Shown here in pieces: positions 17,222-48,733 of a stretch of 64,000 bases of DNA. Origin of the DNA: a virus (taxonomy: Duplodnaviria > Caudoviricetes); IMG/VR virus record IMGVR_UViG_2767802105_000001, positions 17,248-81,247 of that record. One strand, written 5' to 3'. The translations under genes and the position numbers were made by a program. Below the pieces are notes generated by a model, which was not told the DNA's origin, made no database searches, and saw only the letters and a list, made by a program, of their open reading frames with translations. Every line of letters begins with the position of its first letter. The first letter of the stretch is position 1.

Positions 17222-18082
17222 ATGGACAGTAGCCAGATCGCCAACCGGGCACAGCAGCACCCCGAACGGCTCCGCACCCTCGAGCAGCGGGCCGTCGCCG
17301 ACGCCACCCGCCCCCTCGCCCAAGCCCTCACCGACGCCCAAACCGAAGCCGTCACCCGGTGGGTCCGTGAAACCGCCAGCCGCCAAATCCCCGACCGGCT
17401 CGCCGACCTCATCGACTGGGTCCGCGACCTCATCCGCCGCGCCTTCTCAGGCCGCGCCCGCCAAGCCCAAGCCGCCGCCGAGACCGCCGCCTTCAACTCC
17501 GCCCAGCAGGCCGCCCGGCACGCCTCCCTGCTCGCCTCCGCCATCACAGGCCAGCCCACCCCGCCCACCACCCCCGACATCGGAGCCAACGCCCAGGCCG
17601 CCACAGCCGGCATCCCCGCCGCCGTACAGGAGGAGCAGACGCACGCCCTCGCGCTCCTCACCACCGCCAGCCTCACCGCCATGGGACTCGCCGGCCTCAA
17701 CTCCGCCTTCTCCCGAGCCCGGCGAGCCGTCGGCCGGATAGCGCGCGCCACCGCCGTCGCAGTCGGCAGTGCTGCCACCCATGCGGCCCGGCTCGTCGCC
17801 CGTGCTCTCGGCCCCGACATTCGCCTGCTGTGGGTGACCGAGCCCGGGGCCTGCGCCGCATGCCGCGCCTACGCGGGACTCCACATCCACCCCGGCGGCC
17901 AGTTCAAAGGCGGCCTCAGCCTCGACCCGCGGCGCACCGTGTTCGCCTCCGCGATCGCCGGACCGCCACGCCATCCACACTGCCGCTGTGCCCTGGTCCC
18001 CTGGTCGCCGAAGTGGCCGATCACCGGTACGCCCCTGCCCGCCCTCCTGCGCCAACGCGCCCGCACCGACTGGAGGCCCTGA
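17222..18082 (+). CDS. MuF-like minor head protein
   Basis: CAAC...GPPRHPHCRC motif. Confidence 0.8.
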   Translation: MDSSQIANRAQQHPERLRTLEQRAVADATRPLAQALTDAQTEAVTRWVRETASRQIPDRLADLIDWVRDLIRRAFSGRARQAQAAAETAAFNSAQQAARHASLLASAITGQPTPPTTPDIGANAQAATAGIPAAVQEEQTHALALLTTASLTAMGLAGLNSAFSRARRAVGRIARATAVAVGSAATHAARLVARALGPDIRLLWVTEPGACAACRAYAGLHIHPGGQFKGGLSLDPRRTVFASAIAGPPRHPHCRCALVPWSPKWPITGTPLPALLRQRARTDWRP

Positions 18083-44667: not shown

Positions 44668-45635
44668 TCACGCCGCGAGGGCGGGTGTGGCGTGGGCTGC
44701 GGCCATCAGCAGCCGGTGGCCGGCGGCGGTCTGCTGCGGGATGACGCCATTCCCGGCGATCCGCAGCAGCTCGGTGCGCGGTATCCCGGGCACGTCGGTG
44801 ATCCAGCCAGCCGGCCAGCCCATCAAGAACTCGTAGGCCTCGGGGCTGACGCGCAGGTTGCCGCGCGCGTCCGGGGCCACCGGGGACGGCACCGGCCGTC
44901 CGGTGATGTCGGCCCAGCGGCGGACCGCCGGACCGTAGTCCCCCCCCCGAGCTCCGGCGAGTTCCAGTTCTCATCAAGGCGGACGGCGACACCGGGCAGG
45001 TAGTACACGCCCTTGCCGTCGCGCTGGTTGGGGCCCCCGTTCGGGCCGTCGGTGGCCTTCGGCGTGGGCAGCATCGGCAGCGGCGGGTACAGGGCCGCCG
45101 GGGCCGGGACTTCGATGGTGCCGCCGCTGCCAGGGACGGCGTAGCCGATCCAGCGGGGCCGGGTGTGCGGGGCACCAACCGCCGACGCTTTGGTGATCGT
45201 CCAGTACAGGTCGTAGCCCAGCTCGTTCAAGTTCGCCGCCACCGTCGGCAGCCCACGGCGCTTCAACGCGGCCACGTTCTCCAGGAACACCCGCGCCGGC
45301 CGGATCACCGATACGGCCTGGGCCACGTACCGCCACAGCCCCGACCGGGGATCGTCCAAGCCGAGGCGGTGGCCGTTGTTGCTGATGCCCTGGCACGGCC
45401 AGCCCACGATCAGCGTGTCCACGCCCGAGAACTGCTGGGCGGCCTCCCGGTAGTTGATCGCGTCGATGCCTCCCAGGTTCATGGCGCCCGGGAAGCGGGC
45501 GGCCATCACGGCGGAGGCGTGCGGGTTGTTCTCGGCGTAGGCGACCGTGCGGATGCCGGTCTCGGCGCGGACGGCTTCCTCGAGCTGGCCGGAGCCGGAG
45601 CACAGGCCGATCGCTGTCGACGGGGTTGCGGTCAA
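44668..45635 (-). CDS. C5-cytosine methyltransferase split by a frameshift at a G9 tract
   Basis: TTG start with GGAGG RBS; motifs CSGSG, GWPCQ, ENV, PHTRPR in frame 0; LMGWP...GNGV in -1 frame after 44940-44948. Confidence 0.8.
44940..44948 (-). repeat. G9 homopolymer tract
   Basis: Nine C on + strand at the exact frame switch. Confidence 0.9.
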
Positions 45636-45754
45636 GGGTTCCTCCAGGTTGGGCCGCGTGTGCGGCGGGGGTTTCGACACCACCGGTCCCCGTGGCCGGC
45701 GGTAGGCTGCGGGCCAGACCCCGGCGTGGTTCGAGCACGCCGGGGTCGCCGCGT

Positions 45755-46050: not shown

Positions 46051-46248
46051 TCACAGCGACCAGAGGCTGGGCTGCATGGGCTGGAGCGGCAGTTCGGTCT
46101 GCCCCTCGCAGTGGACGGCCGCGGGTTCGGCCACCCGGGCAGGCGCCGGACGGGCCGGGGCCGGGTTGAGGCGGCGGAAACACACCGGGCCCAGGCCCGA
46201 CGGCGACGGGCGACGCAGACGGCGGCCACACGCCGCGCGGCGGGACAT
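46051..46248 (-). CDS. DUF6011-like small protein
   Basis: CGRRL...GLGPVC motif. Confidence 0.6.
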   Translation of the reverse strand: MSRRAACGRRLRRPSPSGLGPVCFRRLNPAPARPAPARVAEPAAVHCEGQTELPLQPMQPSLWSL

Positions 46249-47297
46249 CAGGCGGCCTCGGCGATCTGACCGCTGGACAGCGGCAGTCCGAACGCGGCGG
46301 CAATGACGTGCTCGGCCAGCAGGCAGGGCACGGCGTTGCCGATCTGTTCGAACTGCTTGGTGCGGCTCCCCCGGAACGGGTGATCGGCGGGGAAAGACTG
46401 GAGGATCGCCGCGTCCTGGACGGACAGGCGGATGGTGTCCCGTCGTCCGCCGCGGTAGGCGGGCAGGTTGTCGGCGTCGACGATGCGGGTGCAGTCGATC
46501 CAGCGTCCGGCGTCGCGTTCGCCGTAGAGGGTGGCGCGGGCACCGGAGCCGCCGACGCAGGAGGGATCGGGCCCGCCGGCTGCGGTGCCGACGGCGACGG
46601 TGAGGGCGGGCCGGGCGGTCATGCCCCAGCCGATCGCGTCCGCCATGCTGATCCACGGCTTCAGCCCGAACACTTCCTGCACCTCGGTGACGCCCTTGCG
46701 GTACCGGTGGTGAGTCGGCTGCGGCAGCCGGGCCTCCCCGTCCAGGCTGGCGGCGAGGAAGGCGCGCACCCGGGTCTGCGGGACGCCGTACTCCTCCGAA
46801 GACAGTCGGCCGGTCGCCACGCTGTAGCCCTCGACGCGCAGGAGTTCACCGAGCGCCTCCCAGACGGGCAGCACCGTCGGCACCTGCTCCAGGAGGATCG
46901 TCCGGTACGGGCGGCCGGCGTCCATCGCTTCCAGCGCCCACCGCAGCGGCTCCAGGACCAGGCCGGTCCGCTCGTCGTCGAAGCCAGCGAGGGCCTCCCC
47001 GATGCCCTGGCGTTCGGCCAGACGCTGCGCCAGCTCGAGGACGGTGTCCAGGGCGGCCCGGCCGCGGCCCTTGCCGCCGACAGAGAACGGCTGGCACGGC
47101 GGCGAGCCGATCATGTCGGTGGCGTCGGGGAAGTCGGCGGGCCCGTAGGCGCGGACGTCACCCTCCACCGTGCGGAGTCCGGCGGCACGCCGGGTCTCGC
47201 ATGCGGCGTGATCGCGTTCTATGCCGGTCACATCGAGGCCGAGACGGGTGGCGCCGACATCCCAGCCGCCGGGGCCGGCAAACAAGTCGACGATCAT
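46248..47297 (-). CDS. C5-cytosine methyltransferase
   Basis: DLFAGPGG, GSPPCQ, EQV, PQTRVR, LQSFP, IGNAVP. Confidence 0.92.
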   Translation of the reverse strand: MIVDLFAGPGGWDVGATRLGLDVTGIERDHAACETRRAAGLRTVEGDVRAYGPADFPDATDMIGSPPCQPFSVGGKGRGRAALDTVLELAQRLAERQGIGEALAGFDDERTGLVLEPLRWALEAMDAGRPYRTILLEQVPTVLPVWEALGELLRVEGYSVATGRLSSEEYGVPQTRVRAFLAASLDGEARLPQPTHHRYRKGVTEVQEVFGLKPWISMADAIGWGMTARPALTVAVGTAAGGPDPSCVGGSGARATLYGERDAGRWIDCTRIVDADNLPAYRGGRRDTIRLSVQDAAILQSFPADHPFRGSRTKQFEQIGNAVPCLLAEHVIAAAFGLPLSSGQIAEAA

Positions 47298-48733
47298 GCG
47301 GCTGCCTCCGTGCTGTAGGTGAGGGCTCGGCGATGCAGGTCACGGAGGGCGTAGGCGGCCTGCTGCCAGACGACGCCGTTGCCGAGGGCTCGGAGCATGG
47401 CGGGCCGGGTGAGGCCGGGCGTGTCCGTCACCCAGCCGTCGGGGAGGCCCATCAGCCATTCGGTGAAGACGGGGCTCAGACGTCCCAGAGCGTCGGTTGG
47501 CCAGGGGGCTCGTCGTCCAAGGACTCGTTCCCAGCGGCGGATGGCGGGTTCGTAATCGCCCCAGTCAAGGTCGGGTTCCTCCGGCCGAAGGTCGAGGACG
47601 TCCGTTCGGCATCCGACGCGGTCGGCGTCGGAAGGAGCTGCGCCGCAAGGCTGGGCAGCATCAGGTCGCCCTTGCTGCCGCGCTGATTGGGGCCGCCCTT
47701 CGTGCCGTCCGTCGCCCTCGGCGTCGGCATCAGCTTCACGGCTATCGCGAGCGGTGTGCCCTGCCCGTTCCCGTTGATCCCCTTCGCCAGGTTCCGCTGC
47801 CGCCTGGCCTCCCATGACTCCAGCGACTCCCCGTCGTTCGGATTCGACGCTGTCGGAGTCGGCAGCAGGTTCACCACGACCTCGTTCAGCGGTCGGGAGT
47901 TGCGGTCCATCAGGTTCGACTCCCCCGACTTCCAGTCCCGGGCCGCCGGCGTCGGCAGCAGCGAGATCGCCGTCCGCAGGTCCGGGCCGCCCGTCCCGTG
48001 CTGCCCGATCCCGTTCGTGTCCGAGGTTCGCGGTGTCGGCAGAAGCTTCCGTGTCTCGTCCCGCAGTCCCCAGCCCGCCGACGATCCGCGGTCCGTCCCC
48101 CCGTCCGAGGCGACCGGGGTCGAGAGCAGCCGGCCAGGCGCGGATGATGATGCGGCGGCGGCGGTGGGGGGCGCCGACTTCGTCCGCGCCGTAGCGGCCC
48201 CATTCCGCATCGAACCCGAGGCTGGCCAGGTCCCCAAGAACGGCTCCGCATGCCCGCAGTACAGGCTCAGCGTGTCCGTCTCCCACGCAGTACGGGCAGG
48301 GTTCCATGTCGCTGGCAGCCGGCGCCGAGAGGAGCCCTTCGACATTTTCGATCACCACGAGTTTCGGTTGGAGGATGGAGATGGCGTGGGCCATGTGGTT
48401 CCACAGGCCGGAGCGGGAGTCGGGGTTGAGGCCGACGCGGCGGCCGGCGGAGGAGACGTCTTGGCAGGGGAAGCCGCCGGTGAGGATGTCGACCGGCCCG
48501 TGCTCGTCGAGGACGCCCTGCCAGTCGATCTTTGTTATGTCGCCGAGGTTCGGGACATCGGGCCAGTGACGGGCGAGGATCTTCGCCGCGTACTGGTTCT
48601 TGTCCTCCTTGCCGTTCTTGTCCGGCGGCTCGTACTGCGAGTGCCAGACCACGTCGGCGTCGTAGACGTCCATCACGGCCAGGTCCAGGGCACCGGTGCC
48701 GGTGAACAGGGAGCCGATACGCAGCGGGCTCAT
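47294..48733 (-). CDS. C5-cytosine methyltransferase with long low-complexity insert
   Basis: LFTGTG, GFPCQ, ENV, GAPHRRRR, LMGLP, LGNGVV. Confidence 0.9.
   Translation of the reverse strand: MSPLRIGSLFTGTGALDLAVMDVYDADVVWHSQYEPPDKNGKEDKNQYAAKILARHWPDVPNLGDITKIDWQGVLDEHGPVDILTGGFPCQDVSSAGRRVGLNPDSRSGLWNHMAHAISILQPKLVVIENVEGLLSAPAASDMEPCPYCVGDGHAEPVLRACGAVLGDLASLGFDAEWGRYGADEVGAPHRRRRIIIRAWPAALDPGRLGRGDGPRIVGGLGTAGRDTEASADTANLGHERDRAARDGRPGPADGDLAAADAGGPGLEVGGVEPDGPQLPTAERGRGEPAADSDSVESERRGVAGVMGGQAAAEPGEGDQRERAGHTARDSREADADAEGDGRHEGRPQSARQQGRPDAAQPCGAAPSDADRVGCRTDVLDLRPEEPDLDWGDYEPAIRRWERVLGRRAPWPTDALGRLSPVFTEWLMGLPDGWVTDTPGLTRPAMLRALGNGVVWQQAAYALRDLHRRALTYSTEAAA
47476..48345 (-). CDS. Nested alternative-frame protein with six LLPTPxAxD repeats
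   Basis: 289-aa ORF wholly inside the methyltransferase; one repeat matches an in-frame segment of the 44668-45635 enzyme. Confidence 0.65.
   Translation of the reverse strand: MSKGSSRRRLPATWNPARTAWETDTLSLYCGHAEPFLGTWPASGSMRNGAATARTKSAPPTAAAASSSAPGRLLSTPVASDGGTDRGSSAGWGLRDETRKLLPTPRTSDTNGIGQHGTGGPDLRTAISLLPTPAARDWKSGESNLMDRNSRPLNEVVVNLLPTPTASNPNDGESLESWEARRQRNLAKGINGNGQGTPLAIAVKLMPTPRATDGTKGGPNQRGSKGDLMLPSLAAQLLPTPTASDAERTSSTFGRRNPTLTGAITNPPSAAGNESLDDEPPGQPTLWDV

Follow-up and report, generated by a model that had tools for sequence, protein, structure and literature searches.

We describe a gene in a stretch of 64,000 nucleotides of DNA from a virus of the Caudoviricetes (IMG/VR record IMGVR_UViG_2767802105_000001, a provirus record of 81 kb, positions 17,248 to 81,247), referred to here as the window. 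Comparison with its relatives suggests that one stretch of this gene is read in two frames and gives rise to two polypeptides, which probably form a single C5 DNA methyltransferase together. The longer polypeptide, α, contains the catalytic motifs. The shorter one, β, is wholly nested in it and would supply the variable region that related enzymes carry between motifs VIII and IX.

The gene is the third in a tandem of three C5 methyltransferase genes on the minus strand, downstream of the replication genes (window open reading frames (ORFs) and Pfam matches). It consists of a 479-residue ORF (frame A) and, inside it on the same strand, a 289-residue ORF in the +1 frame (frame B). A preliminary description of this locus, made from the letters alone, had pointed to the nested ORF with six LL(P/S)TP units, to low-complexity filler in the catalytic frame over these units, to a nested ATG made from the rarely chosen codons GAA AAT GTC of motif ENV, and to a likeness between the fifth unit and an in-frame unit of the neighbouring enzyme. 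Every element of that observation is present in the sequence. Both ORFs and all six units are there; G/A/R/D/E/P make up 76% of residues 200-388 of frame A and hydrophobic residues 11%, compared with 49% and 32% elsewhere in α; AAT accounts for 12 of 214 Asn codons (6%) and GAA for 113 of 394 Glu codons (29%) in the family's N-terminal parts coded in frame A only; and LMPTPRATDGTKGGPNQR of unit 5 and MLPTPKATDGPNGGPNQR of the neighbour are identical at 13 of 18 positions, counted by eye. The main parts of the gene are as follows, with A1-A3 and B1-B3 denoting codon positions in the two frames.

47294..48733, minus strand: frame A ORF, the α polypeptide of 479 residues, with motifs I-VIII, a read-through tether and motifs IX-X
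48346..48733, minus strand: segment that codes in frame A alone (motifs I-V and the lead-up to ENV); G+C content at A3 is 0.83-1.00, and differences from relatives are concentrated at A3
48152..48169, minus strand: motif VIII, PHRRRR, the last strongly A-selected element before the unit array (motif scan and codon-column entropy)
47570..48136, minus strand: frame-A read-through of the array (α residues 200-388), the proposed tether (composition, entropy and absence of stops)
47297..47569, minus strand: C-terminal part of α in frame A, with the WGxYxPAIRRWE helix, motif IX (FTEWLMG) and motif X (GNGV) (phrog_1008 match; A3 G+C of 0.93)
47476..48345, minus strand: frame B ORF, the proposed β polypeptide of 289 residues (ORF and phrog_1008 match)

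α matches Pfam family PF00145 over residues 5-199 (E value 7.4e-25; score 88.5 against a cut-off of 22), and phrog_363 and phrog_116 with E values of ~8e-54. Motif I (FTGTG, residue 10) satisfies the FxGxG feature of S-adenosylmethionine binding, and motifs IV (PCQ) and VI (ENV) are located at residues 89 and 129. Motif VIII (PHRRRR, residue 189) has a histidine in place of the Q of QxRxR and is followed in the usual order by motifs IX (FTEWLMG, residue 423) and X (GNGV, residue 451). Motifs I, IV, VI and VIII are thereby confined to the first 200 residues, and IX and X to the last 90. The C-terminal part has no match in Pfam, though phrog_363, phrog_116 and phrog_1008 match there, and motifs IX-X are strongly conserved across relatives.

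The region between motifs VIII and IX is occupied by six tandem modules, written in the other frame, with LL(P/S)TP at β residues 73, 101, 129, 160, 205 and 237. Their types recur in many orders among the relatives.

48046..48129, minus strand, frame B: unit 1 (LLSTPVASD..., DGGTDRG type)
47962..48045, minus strand, frame B: unit 2 (LLPTPRTSDTNG... type)
47869..47961, minus strand, frame B: unit 3 (LLPTPAARDWKSG... type)
47734..47868, minus strand, frame B: unit 4 (LLPTPTASNPNDGE...WEARR type)
47638..47733, minus strand, frame B: unit 5 (LMPTPRATDGTKGGPNQ type)
47557..47637, minus strand, frame B: unit 6 (LLPTPTASDAER...NPTL type), whose end overlaps the first A-selected codons (W-G) of the C-terminal part

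The coding signal changes frame at the array. G+C at A1, which is B3, reaches 0.87-1.00 over frame A residues ~200-400, where A3 has 0.40-0.70, and A3 is at 0.93-1.00 at both gene ends. L007, one of the fetched relative loci (to which L-numbers refer), has the same order of units; its array differs from that of the window at B3, B1 and B2 by 35, 9 and 6 of 183 sites each. At A3 there are 34 differences in the N-terminal part, versus 15 and 17 at the other two positions, and 18 in the C-terminal part, versus 12 and 7. Codon-position G+C, these substitutions and the composition of the filler indicate that the array has evolved as a frame-B protein and that frame A there is a by-reading. Frame-specific codon conservation across homologs, which the preliminary description had suggested as a check, leads to the same result, with purifying selection in frame B and, at both ends of the gene, in frame A. 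A codon-threaded alignment of 48 clusters of relatives, in which entropy was calculated by column in both frames, likewise has the LLPTP units selected in frame B only. The tether has no sequence conservation (frame-A amino-acid entropy of 1.3-3.5 over the units).

For the survey of relatives, the frame-B protein was used as the query to fetch 80 loci from genomes and 80 from viral contigs, which with six phage loci and the window region gave 167 sequences. In each of them, the reading frame was scored for the N-terminal core, every unit and the C-terminal part. Eleven sequences were left out (contig ends, short matches and two divergent proteobacterial loci), eight for want of a C-terminal match and three of an N-terminal one. 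Among the 158 pairs of N- and C-terminal parts that were classified, 103 place every unit in the +1 frame and the C-terminus in an open frame A; in another 28, also with frame A open, the array begins in +1 and passes into A; and 12 were scored as having all units in A. The remaining pairs comprise 13 of a split form, where the C-terminus is in the frame of the units and frame A has 1-10 stops in all 13, and two with other patterns (L056 and L149). None of the 158 pairs combines an all-in-+1 or +1-then-A layout with an interrupted frame A. Clustering at 80% nucleotide identity gave 106 clusters, 61 of them all-in-+1, 22 +1-then-A, 10 all-in-A and 13 others. Inspection by eye found that in eight of the 10 all-in-A clusters the first one or two units are still in frame B, leaving L018 and L119 as the only true single chains among them. 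The nested frame is thus present in nearly every relative fetched and is not patchy. The A-B-A pattern also occurs in the Streptomyces phages Raleigh and Darolandstone, whose ENV codons likewise contain the ATG and whose records annotate the long ORF alone.

Both frames are maintained. In all 61 clusters with every unit in frame B, frame A is free of stops over 58-309 codons. The probability of such an open frame was estimated by synonymous codon shuffling within frame B (mean of 0.39 per cluster, product about 1e-41) and by drawing codons from the pooled usage of the family (mean of 0.22, product 1e-46). The third frame is open in only two of the 61. An open frame A in 61 of 61 clusters, against a mean probability of 0.39, argues that its openness is under selection. 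Frame B is uninterrupted from motif VII to the last unit in 83 of 84 clusters; stops common among homologs had been named beforehand as an observation that would speak against a nested gene. These results argue against chance, sequencing error or a pseudogene as the explanation of the nested frame.

The start of frame B is embedded in conserved codons of frame A.

48343..48345, minus strand: ATG start of frame B inside ENV, spanning AAT/GTC of GAA AAT GTC (48349-48341)
48350..48358, minus strand: Shine-Dalgarno-like run GTGGTGATC, supplied by V-V-I codons 4 nt before the nested ATG and containing the frame-B TGA (48354-48352, 9 nt upstream of the ATG)

We take GTGGTGATC to be complementary to the 3' end of 16S rRNA, as a putative ribosome-binding run. 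Three designs for starting frame B account for 74 of the 106 clusters. In the first, with 18 clusters including the window, the ATG lies inside ENV and GGTGGTGATC, coded by V-V-I, or a near variant precedes it in most (by eye). The second, with 37 clusters, uses a GTG 22 nt after ENV. The third, with 19 clusters, uses an ATG that precedes ENV by 68 or 74 nt and follows GGAAAGGA-type runs. The Asn codon of ENV is AAT in 18 of 18 clusters of the first design (by definition), in three of 37 of the GTG class and in none of 51 others. The Arg residue following ENV is encoded by AGA or AGG in 30 of 33 members of the GTG class, compared to one of 28 in the groups with the ATG at +4 or unclassified starts. 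In the GTG class this Arg codon yields a GAGAGGA-type run 8-10 nt before the GTG, which is itself supplied by the Ser codon AGT; the family background is 4% of Ser codons for AGT and 9% of Arg codons for AGA and AGG together. Such use of rare Arg and Ser codons suggests that they were enlisted to give the other frame a purine-rich run and a start codon. In the databases, gene calls often agree with these start positions: many proteins begin at position 7-8 or 1 of the β profile. The protein collection also holds a 244-residue call (P0001) that is identical to the nested frame of the window and was begun at an internal Met, and several Streptomyces genomes list β-type ORFs as 'hypothetical protein'.

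Downstream of its start, β has a small N-terminal domain that overprints α, followed at the far end of the ORF by a short tail.

48181..48312, minus strand: W domain of β (residues 12-55; AxWNPxRxxWET ... TWPxSGxxRxG), overprinted on α from ENV to motif VIII
47476..47556, minus strand: tail of the frame B ORF over the A-selected C-terminal part (three-frame translation)

In the 48-cluster alignment, the first half of the W domain (AxWNPxRxxWET) has low amino-acid entropy in frame B and wobble at B3, and frame A is variable there. Between motifs VII and VIII the conservation is in frame A, with the variation at A3. The TWPxSGxxRxG stretch is an exception: A3 entropy falls to 0-0.25 at five of 11 codons, versus about 1.1-1.9 at neighbouring conserved codons. 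This freezing of A3 suggests that both frames are constrained at once. A hidden Markov model (HMM) of the W domain hit the +1 frame in 148 of 148 cases and never a separate in-frame copy. An apparent in-frame, non-overlapping copy of this handle in L119 was dismissed after the HMM gave no significant hit, and one in L115 proved to be an extra frame change at a G run. This IMG/VR contig (2300-2700) has the change in the insert from ENV to motif VII, so that its core is split between two frames; an error or a recent mutation is the probable cause. The tail of the frame B ORF is probably an unselected shadow. Its stop falls in the L-S-P codons of α, and most relatives have this stop 88-130 nt beyond the point where the C-terminal match begins.

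Searches with β place it in a large family. At least 3360 relatives score at E ≤ 1e-5 among the 8000 candidates scored, and the β profile matches 19,714 representative proteins at E ≤ 1e-3. The named proteins among the best 120 are mostly 'hypothetical protein', none with a Pfam domain, and ESM Atlas returned clusters of hypothetical proteins only. β itself matched no family in Pfam or NCBIfam and no PDB sequence at E ≤ 10. No HNH or LAGLIDADG nuclease was found in it with Pfam, NCBIfam or the PDB sequences. A proteobacterial β gave one weak hit among plasmids.

The same parts are distributed differently between chains in different relatives. The family phrog_1008, a phage 'DNA methyltransferase' second-gene family, is divided over both frames of the window gene: positions 72-174 correspond to frame B residues 10-114 (E value 1.3e-28) and positions 204-326 to α residues 335-475 (E value 4.6e-33). 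The window gene is not of the phrog_1008 type itself; its handle, LLPTP units and motifs IX-X are not on one chain. They are on one chain in the split forms of phages KBurrousTX, Ovechkin and Samy, where α ends after motif VIII and β comprises the handle, the units and motifs IX-X. A β that ends within the array, with the remaining units in α, is found in prophi91-4 and 21 further clusters. In the single chains L018 and L119, these unit types are in frame and are the sole sequence between motifs VIII and IX. The neighbouring enzyme likewise has single-chain relatives (four inspected of six fetched), with one GGPNQ-type unit at that place. In two loci from Acidovorax and Paracidovorax (L085, 2050-3410; L077, 2050-3150), the nested frame codes for WPTP-type units and motif IX; motif X is left to the outer frame, which is free of stops. 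In a quick, weakly resolved tree of the N-terminal core, the split form is scattered, with seven changes for eight rows, at least three of them forced by supported branches. The place of the units in single-chain, split and nested forms indicates that they are, by position, the variable 'target-recognition' region of the enzyme, which would work in cis or in trans. Two split forms, L153 and that of phage Ovechkin (L004, 1480-1560), have a GGPNQ-type unit in the third frame (pattern 2111111). This unit lies between the end of α and the rest of β and ends at a stop just before the unit in the next frame.

The modules recombine. Typing by hand-made motif classes, which left 135 of 396 units untyped, gave 77 distinct strings of unit types among 103 genes; single-linkage clustering had merged 319 of the 396 units in one group and was replaced by these classes. 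The unit 5 type is the most widespread, with 77 units across the 103 typed genes, and is also the sole unit of the neighbouring single-unit enzyme. Close relatives diverge as mosaics. The window and L092 are identical over nt 400-600 and differ by 32-39% in the array, and the comparison with L007 gives the reverse, an array that is alike and a flank that has diverged. The array is therefore shufflable, as had been proposed from the letters alone, on the evidence of both the unit strings and this mosaic divergence. The words 'specificity repeat' and 'multispecific' from the same proposal go further: the modules would have to read DNA sequence, and several modules to confer several specificities, which we infer from their position.

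Structure prediction was applied to a single-chain relative and to β. The single-chain relative L018, modelled by AlphaFold2, has block means of the predicted local distance difference test score (pLDDT) between 83 and 98 for its core (1-170) and between 95 and 98 for residues 341-410, the counterpart of the C-terminal part of α, whereas its unit array (174-329) has 33-58. The predicted core of this relative, which is not the window protein, matches M.HhaI with an E value of 6e-14 over 169-173 columns at 28% identity. A confident core around a low-scoring array suggests that the core can fold with a loose insert at the place where the window α has its tether. β modelled alone has a mean pLDDT of 56 and is mostly coil, with two small hairpins in its N-terminal domain and a best 10-residue block of 79.

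We propose that α consists of a catalytic core with motifs I-VIII, tethered to motifs IX-X by about 190 residues. The tether would be frame A read across DNA that is meaningful in frame B, acting as a disordered linker. β would start at its own ATG inside ENV. Its small overprinted domain would be a handle that docks it onto α, and its six LLPTP-type modules would supply in trans the variable region that single-chain relatives have in cis. We favor this arrangement because it would account for the openness of frame A, for the starts conserved in frame B and for the interchange of parts between chains. The two-subunit, dual-coded enzyme put forward in the preliminary description is strongly supported by the comparison, through the openness of both frames, purifying selection in frame B, the starts of its own that frame B has, and the split and fused forms.

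Several points count against the two-chain arrangement. It depends on both products being made and on the chains binding each other, for which the argument is one of comparison. A tether of 190 unselected residues is unusual within an enzyme. β is predicted to be mostly disordered, so the docking role of its N-terminal domain gains no structural support from the model. None of the three start designs is present in 32 of the 106 clusters. Since the β protein was the query, forms lacking the β frame are under-sampled. L036 has one stop inside frame B, between two units, and in L011, which has the same sequence as L094, frame B is cut by a stop after 151 residues (2501-2956), beyond which further units still lie in frame B; no other broken nested frames were seen. 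Frame A is interrupted in L056 and L149, the two clusters with other frame patterns.

Other explanations have been considered. The A-B-A order of meaningful segments is the order of a single-chain enzyme, and B-selected and A-selected segments come within 2-3 codons of each other at both junctions. A single polypeptide could therefore be made by two programmed frameshifts, +1 after motif VIII and -1 before motif IX, restoring the order of core, modules and motifs IX-X. We think this quite unlikely: an enzyme made by frameshifting would not need an open frame A, yet frame A has no stop over 58-309 codons in any of the 61 clusters, and there is no stop in frame A after the would-be +1 site. It also leaves unexplained the interchangeable layouts and the conserved frame-B starts, which lie with their purine-rich runs 60-95 codons ahead of the first unit. 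A canonical -1 slippery heptamer is in phase near the B-to-A junction in one of 61 clusters, and that junction falls at varying places in the array between lineages (patterns 10, 100, 1100 and 1110000). The openness of frame A bears equally on the suggestion that only frame B and the ends of frame A matter, with motifs IX-X translated from an internal start or dispensable. Frame A could then be open as a by-product of composition, as A1 coincides with B3, which is rarely T, and about 0.2-0.4 of shuffled genes are open by chance. That expectation is far from 61 of 61, every one of the 13 classified pairs whose motifs IX-X are in frame B does have stops in frame A (1-10), and motifs IX-X are too strongly conserved to look dispensable; we consider this explanation improbable.

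It is just as improbable, in our judgment, that β is a real protein but no subunit, being either an overprinted gene with no tie to the enzyme or, as with the hidden HNH genes, a selfish insert, with an α that works alone or not at all. Out-of-frame ORFs that leave the host frame open are described for actinophage methylase genes in the available part of one report (PMC11855218), and β matches nothing in Pfam or NCBIfam and is predicted to be disordered alone. On the other hand, nothing but units of these types separates motifs VIII and IX in L018, L119 and the relatives of the neighbouring enzyme, and in the split forms they are fused in frame to motifs IX-X as the phrog_1008 family. The nested frame is also near-universal, with only two of the 10 all-in-A clusters lacking B-frame units by eye, and β contains no nuclease motif that we could find. 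An assembly error or a decaying pseudogene, in which two compensating indels would have struck a single-frame gene, is very improbable. The neighbouring methyltransferase is indeed broken at a 9-base G run, and four of four inspected relatives are intact. However, phages and genomes that were sequenced independently share the frame pattern (83 clusters), neither junction of the window gene has a homopolymer, and each frame is under purifying selection where it is meaningful.

Beyond two chains forming one enzyme, a wider picture is conceivable, which we put forward tentatively and think somewhat doubtful. The family may use a three-layer code, in which some DNA is selected in frame A only, some in frame B only with frame A read through, and some in both. 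Each LLPTP module may be a separate target element, so that one core is aimed at several sequences and phages re-aim it by swapping cassettes, and the handle may have arisen de novo by overprinting on motifs VI-VIII.

The stop of α overlaps the start of the next methyltransferase gene (46248..47297, an ordinary 349-residue C5 enzyme) as ATGA at 47294..47297, and this overlap suggests coupled translation of the tandem genes. The first gene of the tandem (44690..45653, minus strand) is of the single-unit, single-chain type. Its motif IX-X part is in the -1 frame at a run of nine G (44940..44948; C9 on the plus strand); the run is absent and the gene intact in four of the four relatives inspected, of six fetched. 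The break may reflect a mutation, a switch prone to slippage, or a misassembly.

Bacteria and phages have few long genes that overlap on the same strand, and most of those proposed are disputed. This nested gene of 289 codons, with signals of selection in both frames across about a hundred lineages, is one of the better comparative cases. It also affects annotation: phage records give either the long ORF alone, with a middle third that makes no sense as written, or two unexplained 'methyltransferases'. If the modules are recognition elements, the family would constitute a natural re-targetable methylation system and a marker of phage-host restriction arms races in Actinomycetota. Our literature search, in which supplements were not covered, found no relevant description of a nested LLPTP ORF in methyltransferases.

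Known enzymes resemble parts of this design. In split two-gene C5 methyltransferases of the M.AquI type, the core with motifs I-VIII is reportedly on one chain and the rest on a second, encoded by overlapping genes. The split pairs gp79/gp80 of KBurrousTX, gp69/gp70 of Ovechkin and 49/50 of Samy are true relatives of the window gene, with the same β start sites and the core I-VIII on chain one. They differ in that their α ends after motif VIII and their β runs through motifs IX-X. In the window, motifs IX-X are back in the α frame; therefore β is wholly nested and α must read through it. The C5 methyltransferases of the Bacillus phages SPR, phi3T, rho11s and H2 are said to carry tandem modules, each of which is reported to confer a target by experiment. 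The likeness, one of arrangement, lies in short tandem modules at the position of the recognition domain; those modules are in the same chain and frame, whereas the modules in the window are in another frame and chain.

Out-of-frame HNH inserts (the 'ShiLan domain') and within-gene recombination are reported for actinophage methylases in the available parts of two papers (PMC11855218; PMC9957025). The resemblance, which is one of layout, is an ORF in another frame of an actinophage methylase gene whose host frame stays free of stops as a poorly structured loop. As far as the available text describes them, those inserts are patchy, homing and nuclease-coding, whereas the nested frame described here is constant in its family and codes for the variable region of the enzyme.

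The closest parallel is M.EcoHK31I, a heterodimeric C5 methyltransferase of E. coli. In the available part of its description (PMC2836561), two chains are needed and β is nested in another frame of α; α has motifs I-VIII, the recognition domain and motif X, and β has motif IX. The window β is likewise wholly nested in α in another frame, and the relatives L085 and L077, compared with M.EcoHK31I by description only, divide the motifs exactly alike. The window enzyme differs in having motif IX in α and the region at the recognition position in the nested chain, a region that the same text places in α of M.EcoHK31I. It also differs in that its β is a recombining array, of 1-8 modules across the family, with an overprinted N-terminal domain. 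If the two-chain arrangement is true, M.EcoHK31I would be the first-described member of a widespread design principle rather than an oddity.

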